64,000 bases of DNA, taken from a virus (lineage: Duplodnaviria; Caudoviricetes). The stretch spans positions 57,042 through 121,041 of IMG/VR virus record IMGVR_UViG_2929701070_000001. One strand, 5' to 3'. The translations under genes and the position numbers were made by a program. Under the pieces are notes generated by a model. It was not told the origin of the DNA. It did no database searches and was given only the letters and a program-made list of their open reading frames with translations. Below, in pieces: positions 22,343 through 57,190 of the stretch. The number at the start of each line of letters is the position of its first letter. Positions within the stretch are counted from its first letter, which is position 1.

Positions 22343-23305
22343 ATGCCGCTCGCAGTTGGTGTTCTCACCCCCACCACCCCGACACCCACCCCCACCGACC
22401 CGGGTCCGATCGTCCCCACCGTCCCCGAGGTGGGGACGATGCGGGCCACGTGGACCGACCCCGACGGTGGTGTGTGGGAGTTGACCGGCCCGCACGAGCT
22501 GCACGGCTGGCTGACCACGCAGGGCATCGGCGGGTGGGGGGCGACACCCCGCACGTTCGTGGTCGACCCGCTGGCTCGTGGTGGGGTGTCGGTGCGGCAC
22601 ATCCGCACCGAGCCGCGGCGCATCACGTGGCCGCTGAACGTGTACGGCAGCACCTATCTGGAGTTCATGACCCGGTACCGGGGTTTGATGCGGGCGTTCA
22701 TGTTGACCGCGCAGACCGGGCGGCCCGGGGTGCTCACCGTGTACTTGCCCGACGGGTCGGGCCGCAGCATCGAAGCGTTCTGTGAGGAAGGCTGGGCGGG
22801 TCAGCCGGGCGAGAACCACACGTTCGCGAACCCGGTGTTGACGCTGCTGTGCCCGGACGGGTATTGGCGTGACATCCAGCCGCGGGTGGTGACCCGCCAG
22901 TACCAGGAGAACACCGGCCCGTTCTTGGCCCCCTACATGCGGGTGTCGTCGGGGCAGGTGCTCGGTGACACCACCATCACCAACCCGGGTGACGTGCCCG
23001 GCTGGCCGCTGTGGACGATCACCGGTCCGGCGACGTCAGTGACCGCCACCAACAACACCACCGGTGCCGCGTTCACCCTCACGTTCACTCTCGCCGTCGG
23101 CGAGCAGGTCACCATCGACACCTCCAGCCACCGGCCCACCGTGCGCGGCCCCGCCGGGCAGAACCTGGTGGGTGCCTTGAACTGGCCGGGCGCTGACCTG
23201 TGGGCGTTGGCGCCGGGCGTCAACAACGTCAACTTCTCGGTCGACGGCGCCGACGCCGGCACCACCATCGAGATGCGCTACCACCCCCGATACGAGGCCG
23301 CATAG
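22343..23305 (+). CDS. distal tail protein (Dit-like)
   Basis: follows tape measure; L.CPD.YW, NPGDV..WP.WTI.GP, L.PG.N. Confidence 0.8.
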   Translation: MPLAVGVLTPTTPTPTPTDPGPIVPTVPEVGTMRATWTDPDGGVWELTGPHELHGWLTTQGIGGWGATPRTFVVDPLARGGVSVRHIRTEPRRITWPLNVYGSTYLEFMTRYRGLMRAFMLTAQTGRPGVLTVYLPDGSGRSIEAFCEEGWAGQPGENHTFANPVLTLLCPDGYWRDIQPRVVTRQYQENTGPFLAPYMRVSSGQVLGDTTITNPGDVPGWPLWTITGPATSVTATNNTTGAAFTLTFTLAVGEQVTIDTSSHRPTVRGPAGQNLVGALNWPGADLWALAPGVNNVNFSVDGADAGTTIEMRYHPRYEAA

Positions 23306-23308
23306 CCG

Positions 23309-24532
23309 ATGACCAGCCCCAACGAACTACCGGCCGGCATTGCCCGGCACCTCACCGACACCGACATCGCCCTCCTCATCACCGACCGGAACCTCAACGT
23401 CGTCGGCGACGTGATCCGCTGCTGGAGAACCGTCGACTGCACGCTGCGACACAACGAGGTCGGATCCGGCCAGTTCACCGCACCCGGCTACCCGTGGATC
23501 CGTAGCCAGGTTGACGCCGGCAACCGGGTGGTGGTGGTCCGCGCCGGCGACATTTTCATGTCCGGGCCGATCGAAGGCTCCCAGGTGGAGCAGTCCGACG
23601 ACGGCGAGAACTCCGGCGTCGGCGTGTTGACGGTCAACTTCTCCGACGACCTGTCGCGCATCGCGGACCGGCTCGTCTACCCCGACCCGACACAAACCCC
23701 GGAAGGGCAGATGGTGGACGCGTGGACGTTCACCGGAGTCGGTGAGCAGGTGCTGCGCACCTTGGTCGACGTAAACGCCGGCCCGAACGCCCGTACTGAG
23801 CGGCGGGTGCCGCAACTGATCCTCGCCAACCCCAACAGTCCGCTGGTGGGGTCGTCGGTGACGGTGTCGTCGCGGCTGGAACCTCTCGCTGAGGTACTGC
23901 GCCGTGTCGCCTTGTCCGCGGGTGGGCTCGGGTTCCGCACCCGCCAGGACCCAAACCAGAACAAGATCCTGTTCGAGGTGTTTCAGCCCCGCGACCTGTC
24001 CGGCACTGTCCGGTTCGGGTTCGGGTTGCAGAACCTGCGGTACCTGAACGTGGCCCGGCAGGCACCCACCGCCTCCACGGTCATCGTCGGCGGGCAAGGC
24101 GACGGCGGCGACCGGATGCTCACGTCCCGCACCAACACGTCAGCGGAATCGTCGTGGGGGCGGGTCGAGACGTACGTGCCGCGGCCCGGCTCCGACCCCG
24201 TCGCCGAACTGCATGAGGCCGCCGACCATGCCCTCGCCGACGGCGCCGAAACGGTCCGGTTACAGACGTCGGCGTGGGACACCCCCGACCAGCGGTACCC
24301 CGACCACTACCGGCTCGGTGACCGCGTGTCCGTGCAGGTCGGCCCCGCCGAGGAAGTGTCCGACCTGGTGCGGCTCGTGCACCTCCAAGCGTGGGACACC
24401 GCCGGCGAGCTCGTCTCCGCGATGGTCGGCACCCAAGACGCGTCCAGCGACCCTGCGTGGCTGCGGCAGATGCGCGGCATCGACCGCCGCCTCGCCTACC
24501 TGGAACGCACCGCCGTTCCCTCGACCGGCTGA
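23309..24532 (+). CDS. minor tail/hub protein (ReqiPepy6 Gp37-like)
   Basis: RHN.VGS, MSGP, R.VYP.P, VGGQG.G..R, Y.LGD.V.V. Confidence 0.75.
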   Translation: MTSPNELPAGIARHLTDTDIALLITDRNLNVVGDVIRCWRTVDCTLRHNEVGSGQFTAPGYPWIRSQVDAGNRVVVVRAGDIFMSGPIEGSQVEQSDDGENSGVGVLTVNFSDDLSRIADRLVYPDPTQTPEGQMVDAWTFTGVGEQVLRTLVDVNAGPNARTERRVPQLILANPNSPLVGSSVTVSSRLEPLAEVLRRVALSAGGLGFRTRQDPNQNKILFEVFQPRDLSGTVRFGFGLQNLRYLNVARQAPTASTVIVGGQGDGGDRMLTSRTNTSAESSWGRVETYVPRPGSDPVAELHEAADHALADGAETVRLQTSAWDTPDQRYPDHYRLGDRVSVQVGPAEEVSDLVRLVHLQAWDTAGELVSAMVGTQDASSDPAWLRQMRGIDRRLAYLERTAVPSTG

Positions 24533-31127: not shown

Positions 31128-31224
31128 GCGCTGACCGTAGCGCGTTCAGGGTTCCTTGCATTCGCCCGACCGCAATTCAAGCTTCGGGCAGTTTCCTTGC
31201 ATCCCAAGATCCCAAGGAGGGGTC

Positions 31225-31599
31225 ATGTCTGACGTTCCCGCCCTGCCCGTGTACGGTTTCGCCCCCAACCTCGGGGGACTGCTGTCGCTGGCCATCACCG
31301 TGCTCCTGCCGATCCTCGTCGGTCTGGTCACCCGCCGCTCCACCAGCGCCTCCGCGAAGGCCGTGCTGCTGCTCCTGCTGTCCGCCGTCAACGCCGTGCT
31401 GTCCGCGTGGCTCCAGGCGGAGAACACCGCCGCGGTGTTCGAGTGGATCCCGGTGGTGTACTCCACGGCCATCAACTTCGGCATCGCCGTCGCGGTGCAC
31501 TTCGGCCTGTTCAAGCCGACCGGTGCCGCGTCGGCCGCGCAGGGCAGCCTGGTGAAGGACAAGGTGCTCGACGGCAGCGCCGTCGAACGCCACGCCTGA
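31225..31599 (+). CDS. holin
   Basis: SD AAGGAGG; three hydrophobic segments; LP.LVGLVT..KAVLL.LLS..HFGL.KP.G actinophage holin pattern. Confidence 0.75.
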   Translation: MSDVPALPVYGFAPNLGGLLSLAITVLLPILVGLVTRRSTSASAKAVLLLLLSAVNAVLSAWLQAENTAAVFEWIPVVYSTAINFGIAVAVHFGLFKPTGAASAAQGSLVKDKVLDGSAVERHA

Positions 31600-31653
31600 C
31601 ACGCCGCCCCGCAGGCTGGCGTCGTTTCTCGCTCCCCAGCGGCGACGCCACAC

Positions 31654-31700
31654 GTCCGCCCCACCTCCCGCGCCTCGCGCCGGGGGTGGGGCGGACTTTT
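31654..31700 (+). terminator. Rho-independent terminator ending the late operon
   Basis: GTCCGCCCCACCTCC...GGGGGTGGGGCGGAC followed by TTTT. Confidence 0.7.
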
Positions 31701-31710
31701 CGCGTCTGCC

Positions 31711-31743: not shown

Positions 31744-31815
31744 GCCTCCGGTGCGAAGGCGACGGGTACTTCTCTCGTAAAGGACACCCCCGTCGCCGGC
31801 CCTGATCTCGGAGGC
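31744..31815 (+). ncRNA. short Y-RNA-like RNA with anticodon-like stem-loop
   Basis: terminal stem GCCTCCG/CGGAGGC; GGTGCG...TGATC bulged helix; GGCGACGGG/CCCGTCGCC stem; loop CTCGTAA. Confidence 0.7.
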
Positions 31816-31831
31816 CACAACTAAACAGCAC

Positions 31832-31964
31832 CTCCCCGGTGCGCAGGCAGCGGTTACTTCTAAACCCATGTGTCGCAGGTTCAAGTCCTGCCGCCAGCTC
31901 AGCTGGCGTAGCTCAGATGGCAGAGCAATGGCCCAACACCGCAGCCGACTTTGATCTCGGGGAG
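31832..31964 (+). ncRNA. Y RNA, YrlA-like circularly permuted tRNA mimic
   Basis: stem CTCCCCG/CGGGGAG; T arm GCAGG-TTCAAGT-CCTGC; closed acceptor stem CGCCAGC/GCTGGCG; D arm GCTC-AGATGGCA-GAGC; upstream of Ro60. Confidence 0.85.
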
Positions 31965-31974
31965 TACAACTTCT

Positions 31975-32120
31975 GGTGTTGCCCGGTGCGCAGGACGCGG
32001 TTACTTCCTCTCGCAAAAGGTGAGACGCGGGTTCAAATCCCGTCGCCGACCTCGGTCGGTGTGGACGAGTGGCCTAAGTCGCATTGTTACCGCATCCGAC
32101 TTGATCTCGGGCATCACACC
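31975..32120 (+). ncRNA. Y RNA, YrlA-like circularly permuted tRNA mimic
   Basis: stem TGCCCG/CGGGCA; T arm GCGGG-TTCAAAT-CCCGT; acceptor CGCCGAC/GTCGGTG; D arm GAC-GAGTGGCCTAA-GTC. Confidence 0.85.
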
Positions 32121-32158
32121 TGAACGCGACTCCCCTCCTCACGGAAGGGAGTTTCTTC

Positions 32159-33763
32159 ATGTCCAAGTTCAACTCCACCGCCACCCGACCGTCAGGCGTC
32201 TCGCCGATCGTCGCCGACACGCGGCCGACCGGCACCACCCACGAGGGCGGCCCCGGCTACGCCCGTGACGCCAAGTCCGAACTGTTTCTGCTGGCTGTCA
32301 CCAACATGGTCGGCGAGAAGACCTTCTACGAATCCGCCGAGGCGCGTGACGAGCGGTTCGAGCGGCTGGTCCGCCAGGTCGCCGTCGCTGACCCGGCCTG
32401 GACCGCCCGGTTCCTGCCCTGGCTGCGCAACGGCGCGAACCTGCGCTCCGCGTCGCTGGTCGGCGCGTTGGAGGCCGCGAAGGGGATGCTCACTGCGAGC
32501 ATCCCCGGCTCCCGCGCCGTCGTCGCGTCCGTGCTCCAGCGCGCCGACGAGCCCGGTGAGGCCCTGGCCTACTGGACCAGCCGCTACGGCCGGGCGATCC
32601 CGAAGCCGGTGAAGCGGGGCATCGCCGACGCGCTGCTGCGCCTGTACACGGAGCGTTCGCTGCTCAAGTACGACACCGCCAGCCATGGCTTCCGGTTCGG
32701 TGACGTGATCGATCTCGTGCACCCGGTCGCCGACGCCCGGTGGCGCGGTGCCCTGTTCGCGGAGGCGTTGAACCGACGGCACAACCGCGGGTGGGCGGTC
32801 GACGCGGATCTGCTTCCGACGCTGGCGTACAACGCGACCCTCCGCGAGTTCGCCGCTGAGGACCCGTCGCGCCTGCTCGACGCGGGCAAGCTCCAACGGG
32901 CCGGCATGACCTGGGAGGACGTGCTGTCCCTCGCCGGGTCAAAGGTCGACAAGGCGAGGTTGTGGGAGGCACTGATCCCGTCGATGGGCTACATGGCGCT
33001 GCTGCGCAACCTGCGTAACTTCGACCAAGCCGGCGTGTCCGACGAGGTGGCGCAGACCGTGGCGGCGCGGCTGGCCGACCCGCAGCAGGTCGTGAGGTCG
33101 CGGCAGATGCCGATGCGGTTCCTGTCGGCGTACCGGGCGGCGCCGTCGCTTCGCTGGTCGTACCCGCTGGAGCAGGCCCTGGGCTACGCGCTGGGCAACA
33201 TTCCGTCCCTGCCCGGTCGGACGCTGGTCATGGTGGACACGTCGGGCAGCATGAACGCCGGCTTCTCCAAGGATGGCACCCTCATGCGGTGGGACGCTGC
33301 GGTCATCTTCGGGGTGGCGCTCGCCCAGCGCTGCGACACCGCGGACGTCGTGTCGTTCTCCGGCCGGATGTGGGGCGACCCGACGGGCGTCGCGACGAAG
33401 GTGTTCCCGACGCAGGACGGTGAGTCGCTGCTGCGCTCAATCGAGCGGTGGAAGACCGGCGGCTGGTTCATCGGCGGGGGCACCGACACTGCGGCGGCGT
33501 TGAGCAAGCACTTCGCCGGTCACGACCGGGTGGTCGTGCTGACCGACGAGCAGGCCACCGTGGGCGGCAACGTGTCCCGGTCGGTGCCGGATCAGGTGCC
33601 GATGTACACGTGGAACTTGGCGGGCTACCAGCACGGCCACGCCCCGTCAGGGTCGCGTAACCGGCACACGTTCGGGGGGCTCTCCGACGCCGCGTTCCGC
33701 ATGATCCCGCTCATCGAGGCGGGCCGCAACGCCGACTGGGACGCCATCTTCGGCCCGTTCTGA
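32159..33763 (+). CDS. rsr: Ro60/Rsr ortholog (TROVE domain plus vWA)
   Basis: T.EGG.GY, ELFLLAV.N.V...FYE, RADEPGE, MALLRNLRN; intact MIDAS DTSGSM...GGT...TDEQ. Confidence 0.92.
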   Translation: MSKFNSTATRPSGVSPIVADTRPTGTTHEGGPGYARDAKSELFLLAVTNMVGEKTFYESAEARDERFERLVRQVAVADPAWTARFLPWLRNGANLRSASLVGALEAAKGMLTASIPGSRAVVASVLQRADEPGEALAYWTSRYGRAIPKPVKRGIADALLRLYTERSLLKYDTASHGFRFGDVIDLVHPVADARWRGALFAEALNRRHNRGWAVDADLLPTLAYNATLREFAAEDPSRLLDAGKLQRAGMTWEDVLSLAGSKVDKARLWEALIPSMGYMALLRNLRNFDQAGVSDEVAQTVAARLADPQQVVRSRQMPMRFLSAYRAAPSLRWSYPLEQALGYALGNIPSLPGRTLVMVDTSGSMNAGFSKDGTLMRWDAAVIFGVALAQRCDTADVVSFSGRMWGDPTGVATKVFPTQDGESLLRSIERWKTGGWFIGGGTDTAAALSKHFAGHDRVVVLTDEQATVGGNVSRSVPDQVPMYTWNLAGYQHGHAPSGSRNRHTFGGLSDAAFRMIPLIEAGRNADWDAIFGPF

Positions 33764-40048: not shown

Positions 40049-41443
40049 TCACACGATGGCCATGTCAACGAACCGGGACAGGTGCAGCTGGGCCGCCACG
40101 GTGACCGTGTCGGTGGGCCCGTTCCTGTGTTTGGCGACGATGAAGTCCGCCTCGCCGGCGCGGGAGGACTCCTTGTCGTAGTAGTCGTCGCGGTGCAGCA
40201 GGATGACCACGTCGGCGTCCTGCTCTAGCGATCCCGACTCGCGAAGATCACTGAGCTGGGGGCGCTTGTCGGTGCGCTGCTCCGGCCCGCGGTTCAACTG
40301 GCACACCGCGATGACCGGGCACTCAACCTCTTTGGCGAGCAGCTTCAACCCGCGCGACAGGTCCGACACCGCCTGCTGCCGCGACTCCGCCTTCGGCACC
40401 GTCATCAGCTGGAGGTAATCGACCACAATCAGCTTGAGGTCGTGGCGACGCTTGAGTCGCATCGCCTTCGACCGGATCTGCATCAGGTTCATCGACGGCG
40501 TGTCGTCCACGAACAGCGGTGCCTCGGCGATTTCACCCATGCAGCGGGCCAGCCGCGTCCAGTCGTCGTCGGACAGGTTGCCCGAGCGAAGCACGTGCAG
40601 CGGGACTCGGGCTTCCGCGGACAGAACCCGCATCATTATCTCGACCTTGCTCATCTCCAGCGAGAACACCACAGACGCGTCTTTCGCCCGGATCGTCGCG
40701 TTGCGGACGAAGTCGAGGCTGGCCGTTGATTTTCCAAGTCCCGGCCGTCCCGCCACGATCACCAACTGCCCTGGGCTAAGCCCATTGAGCAGCCGATCCA
40801 AGTCCGTGAACCCGGTCGGCACGCCGGTCATCTCGCCCTTGCGGTCACCGATCGCCTCGATTTCGTCCAAGGTCGGTTGGAGCATGTCGGCCATCACCGC
40901 GACGTCGTCGCCGACGGCCCGCTCGGTCACTTCCAGCACCGCCTGCTGCGACAACTGGACGATGTCCGTGACGTTCCGCCCTGCGGGCAGCGCGTCAGCG
41001 GATCCGTATCCCAGCTGCACGATCCGCATGCCTGCCTCGATCAGCCGCCGCAGCGTCGCCTTCTCCGCCACACTGCGGGCGTAGTAGGCGGCGTTCGCTG
41101 CGGTCGGCACCATCTCGATCAGGGTGTGCAGGTACGGCAGGCCGCCAACCCGGGCCAGGTCACCGGAGTCCATGAGTGAGGTGTGAACGGCCACGATGTC
41201 GACGGGGACGCCCGTGTTGTACAGCCGCACGATCGTGTCGAAGATCGGGCCGTGCACCGGCCGGTAGAAGTCTTCGGTTTTCAGGATCTCCGCCACGTCA
41301 CCGCACGCGTCCTTTGACAGCATCATGCCGCCGAGCACCGCCTGCTCCGCCGGGATGTCACACGGCGGCCGGCGGTTGAACTGGCCGTCTTCGTCGGATC
41401 GGCGCGGCATCGGCACGACCTCAGCCACGGGGGCGGCCGTCAC
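40049..41443 (-). CDS. dnaB: replicative DNA helicase DnaB
   Basis: AEQAVLG, AGRPGLGKS, FSLEM, DYLQL, QLNRGPEQR, DLRESGSLEQDAD, KHRNGP. Confidence 0.97.
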   Translation of the reverse strand: MTAAPVAEVVPMPRRSDEDGQFNRRPPCDIPAEQAVLGGMMLSKDACGDVAEILKTEDFYRPVHGPIFDTIVRLYNTGVPVDIVAVHTSLMDSGDLARVGGLPYLHTLIEMVPTAANAAYYARSVAEKATLRRLIEAGMRIVQLGYGSADALPAGRNVTDIVQLSQQAVLEVTERAVGDDVAVMADMLQPTLDEIEAIGDRKGEMTGVPTGFTDLDRLLNGLSPGQLVIVAGRPGLGKSTASLDFVRNATIRAKDASVVFSLEMSKVEIMMRVLSAEARVPLHVLRSGNLSDDDWTRLARCMGEIAEAPLFVDDTPSMNLMQIRSKAMRLKRRHDLKLIVVDYLQLMTVPKAESRQQAVSDLSRGLKLLAKEVECPVIAVCQLNRGPEQRTDKRPQLSDLRESGSLEQDADVVILLHRDDYYDKESSRAGEADFIVAKHRNGPTDTVTVAAQLHLSRFVDMAIV

Positions 41444-56984: not shown

Positions 56985-57190
56985 CAGACGTCGTCCCGTC
57001 GCACGAAGGCCATGTCGTAGTCGAGGTCGGCGGTGCGGCAGGCCGGTTTGTCGCAGCCGGTCAGCAGCCCCGCCACCGGGTCGCCGCAGTGCGGGCAGGT
57101 GACGGGTTGCGGCAGGTTGCAGGGGCCGCCCGGCCACGGCGGGGGGATCGGCACGCCCGGTTTCGGGTCAGCGATGACAGCGAGCGGCAT
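56984..57190 (-). CDS. small Zn-ribbon protein
   Basis: CPHCG...C...C; SD GAGGAG. Confidence 0.5.
   Translation of the reverse strand: MPLAVIADPKPGVPIPPPWPGGPCNLPQPVTCPHCGDPVAGLLTGCDKPACRTADLDYDMAFVRRDDV

Follow-up and report, generated by a model that had tools for sequence, protein, structure and literature searches.

Y RNA units at the prophage rsr locus

We analysed a 64,000-nucleotide (nt) stretch of a Caudoviricetes virus record (IMG/VR IMGVR_UViG_2929701070_000001, positions 57,042 to 121,041), hereafter the window, in which three tandem RNA units lie on the plus strand at 31744–32114, 5′ of a prophage rsr gene for the Ro60 orthologue Rsr. Each of the three units is closed by a stem formed by CCGGUGCG...AGG on one side and ...UGAUCUCGG on the other. 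The explanation that we consider likely as a whole is that these are Ro60-binding, permuted tRNA mimics that have retained an anticodon arm, with a predicted role as partners of Rsr. The units and the gene, with their scores against a covariance model (R1) built from homologues, are as follows.

31744–31815, + strand: RNA1, a short YrlB-like Y RNA with Ro-binding stem, connector helix and apical region (R1 47.7 bits, E 3e-09)
31832–31964, + strand: RNA2, permuted tRNA mimic of YrlA type; body resembling tRNA-Met, anticodon loop not closed (R1 105.9 bits)
31979–32114, + strand: RNA3, permuted tRNA mimic of YrlA type; body resembling tRNA-Ser(CGA), the long variable arm deleted (R1 108 bits)
32159–33763, + strand: rsr, Ro60 orthologue with TROVE and VWA domains (Pfam TROVE E 1.7e-20, VWA_2 E 6e-07)
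32159–33763, + strand: the rsr product also matches phrog_850 'RNA-binding protein' (E 2.2e-53)

R1 finds exactly these three units in the whole 64 kb; RNA3 was among its training sequences, while RNA1 and RNA2 were outside the training set. The rsr start lies 44 nt past the array (RNA3 ends at 32114 and rsr begins at 32159, all on the plus strand), which places the units on the same strand as, and within about 4 kb of, a TROVE/Ro60 gene, as is the case for YrlA. RNA2 and RNA3 have a T arm followed by a closed acceptor stem and a D arm, none of which is present in RNA1; both the sequence and R1 confirm the claim of the original prediction that RNA1 has no T or D arm. The minimum free energy (MFE) of RNA1 is −34.0 kcal/mol (z −2.70). 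Near but inexact matches to the 5′ Ro60-binding motif GNCGAAN0-1G of Chen et al. 2014 are found as UGCGAAGG in RNA1 and as UGCGCAGG in RNA2 and RNA3.

The Rfam YrlA model (RF02553) aligns with the tRNA-like core of RNA2 only (39.9 bits, E 2.4e-07, model positions 23–85) and gives no match to RNA1 or RNA3 at E up to 10, so that all three window RNAs fall below its gathering score of 69 bits. ARAGORN predicts 0 tRNA genes in the window. The sole Rfam tRNA match at gathering level (31902–32051, 29.7 bits against a gathering score of 29) was rejected as a chimera, in which the 5′ acceptor strand and D arm of RNA2 are joined to the T arm and 3′ acceptor strand of RNA3 with 95 nt skipped; tandem permuted units can thus fool tRNA models. 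The window RNAs lack the cloverleaf and free acceptor ends of a tRNA and are not found as such by tRNA finders.

The anticodon region of homologous units

Homologues were taken from arrays of the same genus and order, from 80 rsr loci across many Actinomycete genera, and from 80 viral contigs. A pattern search combining the Ro-binding strand with UACUUC gave 195 places, with both ends located in 177 units. Filtering on length and on distance to the T arm, which is blind to the hairpin discussed below, left 69 full-length tRNA-type units, and these were aligned with MAFFT without fitting to any structure (alignment A1). UACUUC is invariant in A1, the block CCGGUGCG is invariant or nearly so across the 69 units, and the T, acceptor and D helices are 97–100% paired and covarying. 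The viral set came from R1, which gave 171 matches in 83 phage sources; the best 76 of them, comprising 74 distinct sequences, were aligned by fitting to the R1 structure (alignment A2). A blastn search of phage records returned nothing with the window array as query and 11 records with a Nocardia unit.

To place the loop we used the T stem and D arm as anchors, which 68 of the 69 units allowed, and tested all loop lengths between 3 and 11 nt. A 7-nt loop allows five of five stem pairs in 44 of the 68 bacterial units and at least four of five in 60, compared with five of five in 18 of 68 for the next best length, 4 nt. Both distal stem pairs together with a 7-nt loop occur in 59 of the 68. The base counts within these 59 are C 52 and U 5 at position 32, U 58 at position 33, A 42 and G 11 at position 37, and A 51 at position 38, while positions 34–36 hold 22 different triplets. 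The viral sequences repeat the pattern: both distal pairs are present in 57 of 74 distinct sequences, and 51 of those 57 have a 7-nt loop (C32 41, U32 7; U33 48; A37 41, G37 8; A38 50) with 22 triplets and 12 kinds of closing pairs. It had been predicted that U33 and A37 would stay fixed among homologues while the triplet varies, and this is borne out in the bacterial units and again in the phage contigs, with G as the second base at position 37. The bacterial closing pairs are CA/UG (30), GA/UC (10) and CG/CG (7), besides CU/AG, GC/GC, UC/GA, CC/GG and others.

The stem that carries this loop is drawn from both halves of the RNA. In A1, both pairs of the distal helix 30–31:39–40 have changed on both sides (in 13 and 7 sequences), as have all three pairs of the helix 27–29:41–43 (in 3, 18 and 27 sequences); pair 27:43 is C-G in 34, G-C in 24 and U-A in 3 units, and pair 28:42 takes five pair types. 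These changes make a composite anticodon stem the best-supported secondary structure. An alternative model (S2), in which the invariant UUC pairs with nt 41–43, was rejected: none of its pairs has changed on both sides, and 25, 6 and 12 cells are unpaired. Directly after nt 43 comes a V loop of 4–5 nt (AGGUC, UGGUU, AGAC) and then the T arm, and a single nucleotide (N26) separates the D stem from nt 27, so that the segments 27–43, 44–48 and 49 are placed as in tRNA. The family thus has the 5-bp stem, 7-nt loop and Y32/U33/R37 of an anticodon arm, to which the window copies conform loosely.

Selection appears to act on the shape of the loop. Parsimony on trees built from the rest of the RNA counts 6, 3, 22, 25, 18, 10 and 6 changes at positions 32–38 in the bacterial set (57 rows) and 8, 3, 20, 24, 11, 7 and 1 in the viral set (51 rows). 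In both sets positions 34–36 change 3–8 times as often as 32, 33 and 38, and few columns of the entire RNA vary as much as 34 and 35. As Y32, U33, R37 and A38 are kept while 34–36 drift, we infer selection for a loop shape, the U-turn, and not for one anticodon. No other column of the RNA pairs with 34–36, so that the triplet is unlikely to have a pairing target that is fixed or internal.

Among 73 distinct hairpins there are 31 triplets, and 51 of the 73 have all of Y32, U33, R37 and A38. In the 73 hairpins G36 and G37 go together (both in 16, G36 only in 3, G37 only in 2, neither in 52; Fisher p 2.5e-11, uncorrected for relatedness), and the same association holds in the tRNAs of the window's own genome. 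Seventeen of 52 distinct loops are identical to a real tRNA loop of that genome. This enrichment is modest: a null with independent positions gives 9.8 ± 2.8 (60 of 5000 draws reach 17) and one with shuffled triplets 12.4 ± 2.0 (112 of 5000).

Such modest enrichment is what one would also see if the loop were a vestige, left over from a donor tRNA after recent or repeated capture and without a role of its own. Units resemble different host tRNAs, among them Ser(CGA), Met, Arg(ACG) and a Lys/Ala-like one, the hairpin is lost in RNA2-type units and in the Salmonella-type Rfam consensus, and the window copies are degraded. The behaviour of close relatives is harder to reconcile with a relic. Among near-identical RNA bodies, for example in Amycolatopsis, the triplet undergoes point mutation, yet positions 32 and 33 do not change and pairing in the stem is maintained; among such relatives the stem changes from CA/UG to CG/CG, and the CG/UG form is present in a phage contig (L118). 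The 7-nt loop also persists across Rsr proteins that are 46–72% identical to that of the window, and the excess of changes at 34–36 recurs in two data sets. We therefore regard an entirely vestigial loop as unlikely.

A freely varying triplet also bears on whether these RNAs could be permuted precursors of working tRNAs, from which the Ro-binding helix would be excised and the ends ligated. All four arms, a 7-bp acceptor stem and the 7-nt loop are present, and RNase P cleaves the YrlA of M. smegmatis, which also acquires CCA (Chen et al. 2014, PMC4201824); further processing was raised as a possibility by Wang et al. 2018 (bioRxiv 10.1101/312249). Against such maturation stand the unconstrained triplet (31 in 73 hairpins), the statement in the same preprint that no bacterial splicing endonuclease is known for such a junction, and the ORFs searched around rsr, among which no RNA ligase gene was recognised. 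We give a precursor role almost no weight.

The window copies and their probable tRNA origin

The elements of the three window units that correspond to this arm are listed below.

31767–31772, + strand: UACUUC motif of RNA1, containing the published YUAY; invariant in 69/69 aligned units
31770–31784, + strand: RNA1 apical hairpin UUCU / loop CUCGUAA / AGGA; homologous hairpins in loci L136 and L007
31857–31863, + strand: RNA2 CUUCUAA, in register with the host tRNA-Met loop CUCAUAA and single-stranded in the junction with the connector helix; from the alignment of 31857–31898 with tRNA-Met from nt 32 to its end
31866–31869, + strand: RNA2 anticodon-stem 3′ strand CCAU, pairing with AUGG at 31928–31931; anticodon-stem pairs of the Rfam YrlA model, and R1
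31928–31931, + strand: RNA2 AUGG, 5′ side of the anticodon stem, preceded by the D arm and N26; Rfam YrlA model and R1
32008–32019, + strand: RNA3 distal anticodon-stem hairpin, CU / 8-nt loop CUCGCAAA / AG; covariance-model alignment
32009–32025, + strand: RNA3 rival hairpin UCUCGC / AAAAG / GUGAGA, one nt 5′ of the T stem and variable-arm-like; part of the MFE structure
32020–32022, + strand: RNA3 nt 41–43 GUG, pairing with CAU at 32082–32084 as the top of the anticodon stem; 3/3 helix pairs changed on both sides across A1
32082–32084, + strand: RNA3 nt 27–29 CAU, after the D arm and G26; pairs with 32020–32022

The letters and coordinates originally reported for the three RNAs are all exact on recheck, with TTCT at 31770–31773, CTCGTAA at 31774–31780 and AGGA at 31781–31784 in RNA1, CTTCTAAA at 31857–31864 in RNA2, and CTCGCAAA at 32010–32017 in RNA3. 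That these Y RNAs carry anticodon-loop sequence is upheld by their alignment with host tRNAs. RNA3 is in register with tRNA-Ser(CGA), to which its D loop (13/13) and its T arm plus acceptor (21/22) are identical or nearly so. It retains G26-C27-A28 and G41-U42-G43 of that tRNA, with A28-U42 as its variant of pair 28:42, and its loop, CUCG(C)AAA, differs from CUCGAAA by one inserted C. RNA2 is in register with tRNA-Met, matching its D arm at 21/21 and its V loop plus T arm at 19/20 positions.

The remnants of an anticodon stem proposed for RNA2 and RNA3 turn out to be the covarying top of that stem (ATGG/CCAT and CAT/GTG, respectively). The associated claim, that the permutation break falls within the anticodon loop of both RNAs, is correct for the RNA2 type, where it lies at 31|32; because the connector enters there, the letters of the former loop persist on one side of an internal loop. 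In the RNA3 type the break lies instead at 29|30, in the 5′ strand of the stem, so that the loop stays closed.

RNA1, UACUUC-U-CU-CUCGUAA-AG, reads as a shortened copy of UACUUC-CU-CUCGCAAA-AG in RNA3. The letters of the 4-bp, 7-nt hairpin described for it are as given, but its register does not hold up well, a 3-bp form (UCU / 8-nt loop / GGA) being favoured, and in either register the hairpin contributes just 2–2.5 kcal/mol. Nor can the loop be read as a Thr (CGU) anticodon: the triplet is not conserved, and the RNA1 loop is one substitution away from a Ser(CGA)-type loop. Counterparts of the RNA1 hairpin are UUCU-CUCGCAA-AGAA in L136, a 7-nt loop CUGUCAA in L007 and UCUUG-CUGUAAA-CGAGA in an Amycolatopsis short unit. 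A mycobacteriophage short unit has UUCA-CUGCUAA-UGAA. Apical MFE loops of 7 nt occur in 18 of 42 bacterial short units, most of them starting with CU, and in 7 of 19 viral single-hairpin short units. Seven nt is the commonest apical loop length in both sets, and the 3′ AA varies far more than it does in the tRNA-type units.

Several results weigh against an anticodon arm in these RNAs. In the family, RNAalifold run on A1 leaves columns 23–49 unpaired and recovers neither the distal hairpin nor 27–29:41–43; two standard distal pairs are not found together in 9 of the 68 bacterial units and in 17 of the 74 viral sequences; nt 29 and 41 do not pair in 19 of 68 rows; and 22 of the 73 distinct hairpins lack at least one of Y32, U33, R37 and A38. 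Picking hairpins by energy rank was too noisy, with GC-rich other registers winning in most units, and was for that reason replaced by anchor-based counting. Because A2 was fitted to the model, its strong covariation leans towards the proposed structure, and because units resemble different tRNAs, part of the apparent covariation could be donor differences and not compensation. The sequences are also related, so that the Fisher and shuffle figures, and every count, overstate the evidence. The window copies are the weakest examples of all, RNA1 being ambiguous in register (pair probability 0.21–0.23 for the 4-bp, 7-nt form against 0.46–0.62 for the 3-bp, 8-nt form), RNA3 having an 8-nt loop and RNA2 no closed loop. 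For RNA3, the composite-stem model is 15.7 kcal/mol worse than the MFE and, at −43.7 kcal/mol, 11 worse than the rival hairpin (−54.6). The local folds are no better than shuffled sequences, with z 0.23 for RNA1 (113 of 200 shuffles as good) and z 0.19 for RNA3 (116 of 200).

Values of this kind, together with the ambiguous register of RNA1 and the minority of short units in which the 7-nt apical loop appears, would be expected if the short stems of the window, that of RNA1 above all, were accidental and no hairpin formed. Homologous short units nevertheless keep a hairpin at the same place despite differing stems (L136, L007, Amycolatopsis), and 7 nt is their commonest loop length in either set. 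Chance is in our judgement a quite improbable explanation.

The energies of RNA3 raise a different issue, namely whether the hairpin mimics a variable arm. The conserved hairpin would then be the published 'V' stem-loop, the connector helix would be the counterpart of the anticodon stem, as it is in the crystal structure from Salmonella, and the real element of RNA3 would be the 6-bp UCUCGC/GUGAGA helix of a class II long arm. The label V is that of Chen et al. 2014, the D arm of RNA3 is of class II (tRNA-Ser-like), the rival hairpin lies 1 nt 5′ of the T stem and has the advantage of 11 kcal/mol given above, and L005 as well as the first units of the genus's chromosomal arrays could adopt similar registers. 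Position argues otherwise. A class II variable arm lies between nt 45 and 48, 3′ of nt 43–45, whereas the family hairpin is 5′ of nt 41–43, which covary with 27–29, and a complete V loop of 4–5 nt follows the hairpin. By inspection, the rival register is impossible in CUGCUAA-type relatives that share the AGAC V loop; 34–36 and 41–43 show no covariation, with a best fraction paired of 0.75 against 0.65 when shuffled. Since the conserved hairpin lies outside the class II position, and the rival hairpin of RNA3 would fit it, a long variable arm is retained just as a rival for RNA3, and we rate it as distinctly unlikely.

Proposed role and genomic setting

Returning to permuted mimics with a retained anticodon arm, the three prophage-encoded Y RNAs are predicted to bind the adjacent Ro60/Rsr protein. 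RNA2 and RNA3 would be circularly permuted tRNA bodies, Met-like and Ser(CGA)-like, grafted onto the conserved Ro-binding stem, with the acceptor ends joined by a small loop and the new ends placed on the 5′ side of the anticodon region. In RNA3-type units, which in Actinomycetes and their phages are the most frequent, nt 27–29 after the D arm would pair with 41–43 before the V loop, using the 3′ half of the RNA, while pairs 30:40 and 31:39 would be made in the 5′ half by the two nucleotides flanking each side of the 7-nt loop. The result would be a composite 5-bp stem with an intact loop, from which the Ro-binding helix leaves at a three-way junction between nt 29 and 30. As strand 39–43 is continuous, the two half-stems would be expected to stack coaxially. 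RNA1 may be a short derivative that keeps the Ro module and the apical hairpin only.

The hairpin would complete a full-length tRNA look-alike, by which a protein that recognises tRNA independently of the anticodon may be tethered to, or competitively occupied by, the Rsr–Y RNA particle. In a prophage, such a protein could be a host or phage enzyme acting on the anticodon loop. More tentatively, and we think this specific form doubtful, the actinobacterial and actinophage YrlA RNAs might be complete circularly permuted tRNAs that obey tRNA-like loop rules (G37 only after G36; A37 after U36, C36 or A36) and serve as Ro60-tethered baits or competitive inhibitors for triplet-blind enzymes of the anticodon loop. 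These enzymes would be anticodon nucleases of defence or toxin systems, or enzymes modifying position 37, and the RNAs would act as a prophage counter-measure or sensor in tRNA conflicts. Hughes et al. 2020 (PMC7790460) already suggest that Salmonella YrlA might competitively inhibit an anticodon nuclease, and a 2025 paper on a Thermus phage Ro60 proposes that phage Ro60 and Y RNAs co-opt host PNPase. Two ideas of the original prediction fared less well. Arrays presenting different anticodons are not a general feature, since at least two hairpin-bearing units occur in just 5 of 107 loci, all five with different triplets; and nothing points to mimicry of cleaved tRNA halves.

The window RNAs share with YrlA (RF02553; Chen et al. 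2014; the S. Typhimurium structure of Wang et al. 2018) the position just 5′ of rsr on the same strand, the Ro-binding stem, the YUAY, the succession of T arm, closed acceptor stem and D arm, and the anticodon-stem pairs between the strands before V and after D. They differ from it at one point. The Rfam consensus goes directly from CUAc into the 3′ strand of the anticodon stem, and Wang et al. describe the published structure as being without an anticodon loop, whereas most actinobacterial and actinophage homologues have a hairpin with an anticodon-type loop of 7 nt there. The hairpin itself is not new. YUAY is reported as conserved and as the beginning of the fourth stem-loop of YrlA RNAs (Chen et al. 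2014), and the 'V' stem-loop of the same authors is the same element, the fourth stem-loop, upstream of the T arm and starting after YUAY. They call it 'less conserved' and equate it with the tRNA variable arm; here it has a conserved 7-nt Y-U-NNN-R-A loop at tRNA positions 30–40. When their M. smegmatis YrlA-5′ probe is reverse-complemented by hand, it gives CA-CUUCUAA-UG, which fits the pattern. What appears to be new is the reading as a conserved anticodon arm at tRNA positions 27–43, and no earlier description of an anticodon-loop mimic in Y RNAs was found in the published text searched, figures and supplements excluded.

Other comparisons are more distant. Short YrlB/Yrn2-type Y RNAs have the shape of RNA1, and Chen et al. 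2014 report one such RNA per species studied, but the apical part of RNA1 and the anticodon hairpin of the neighbouring RNA3 are homologous. The permuted tRNA genes of red algae and archaea, as summarised by Wang et al. 2018, likewise have the tRNA 3′ half ahead of the 5′ half, an acceptor stem closed by a loop and new ends that form a helix near the anticodon region; they mature to working tRNAs, whereas the window RNAs have an extra helix holding the Ro60 site. Viral tRNA-like structures and transfer-messenger RNA (tmRNA) share the L-shaped mimicry, and the structure of turnip yellow mosaic virus (TYMV) includes an anticodon-domain mimic (Wang et al. 2018). These have free CCA ends and act in translation, in contrast to the window RNAs with their closed acceptor stem and predicted role as Ro60 ligands.

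If the proposed arm is real, the published picture of YrlA as a mimic without an anticodon loop would give way, for a large subfamily including phage copies, to one with a full arm under shape-level constraint. The search for the partner of the YrlA module should then extend to proteins that touch the anticodon stem-loop, and the published idea of a competitive inhibitor of anticodon nucleases would gain a concrete, mutable element. Single tRNAs (Ser-like, Met-like), and not only pairs of different tRNAs, could be the source of such RNAs. The reading would also account for annotation pipelines calling some of these RNAs tRNAs.

Phage copies include one in Brevundimonas phage Kikimora (L114), where GA-CUGCUAA-UC-GGG-AGGUC precedes a T arm and lies 5′ of the phage's Ro-like gene; the locus has three R1 matches. 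Part of this YrlA-like RNA (1491–1565) is deposited as a tRNA-Ser, its loop CUGCUAA being read as anticodon GCU. In Mycobacterium phage Rey (L112), an element at 1486–1573 with a permuted T arm, closed acceptor stem and D arm abuts the 3′ end of a tRNA-Asn in a tRNA/tmRNA cluster (R1 52.5 bits, model positions 26–110); it has no Ro-binding stem, and no Ro gene is present within the 3 kb shown.

The window is a prophage, with holin, tail and DnaB genes as markers:

31156–31599, + strand: holin gene just upstream of the array, marking the prophage context (phrog_8269 holin, E 9.8e-17)
22343–24532: siphovirus tail genes (SPP1_Dit, Sipho_Gp37)
40049–41443: DnaB-type helicase gene

Among the ORFs searched around rsr, five have no NCBIfam/Pfam family and three no PHROGs family, and a sigma-70 promoter scan gave zero sites. 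The rsr and Y RNA cassette is placed right after the lysis gene. Between the two, at about 31644–31706, a strong GC-rich hairpin followed by UUUU, which surfaced as spurious miRNA-family matches, is probably a terminator separating the late operon from the Y RNA array. A second hairpin, CUCCUC-ACGGA-AGGGAG at 32135–32151, which contains a likely Shine-Dalgarno sequence, GGAAGGGAG, and is followed by UUUCUUC, reaches almost to the rsr start codon. Hairpins of similar form (CCCUCC...GGAGGG) lie ahead of rsr in loci L002 and L007, and the window hairpin may control rsr translation.

The same genome holds a second, chromosomal rsr locus on another contig (L111; C11, 66001–70500, minus strand). Its array, longer than that of the prophage, comprises about eight Y RNA units with several different architectures, and arrays of this type are kept across the genus (L003–L010). 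In L003–L006, L008 and L111 the first unit is class-II-like, with an extra hairpin directly after the D arm and nt 27–29; this hairpin is capped by a GNRA tetraloop (GCAA or GCGA) and gives a four-way junction at the anticodon stem. Elsewhere in the genome (C1, minus strand, about 465036–465100 and 468576–468651), the 3′ half of tRNA-Arg(CCU), from the anticodon loop to the 3′ end, has been copied about 3.5 kb from the intact gene, which looks like the att duplication of an integrated element.

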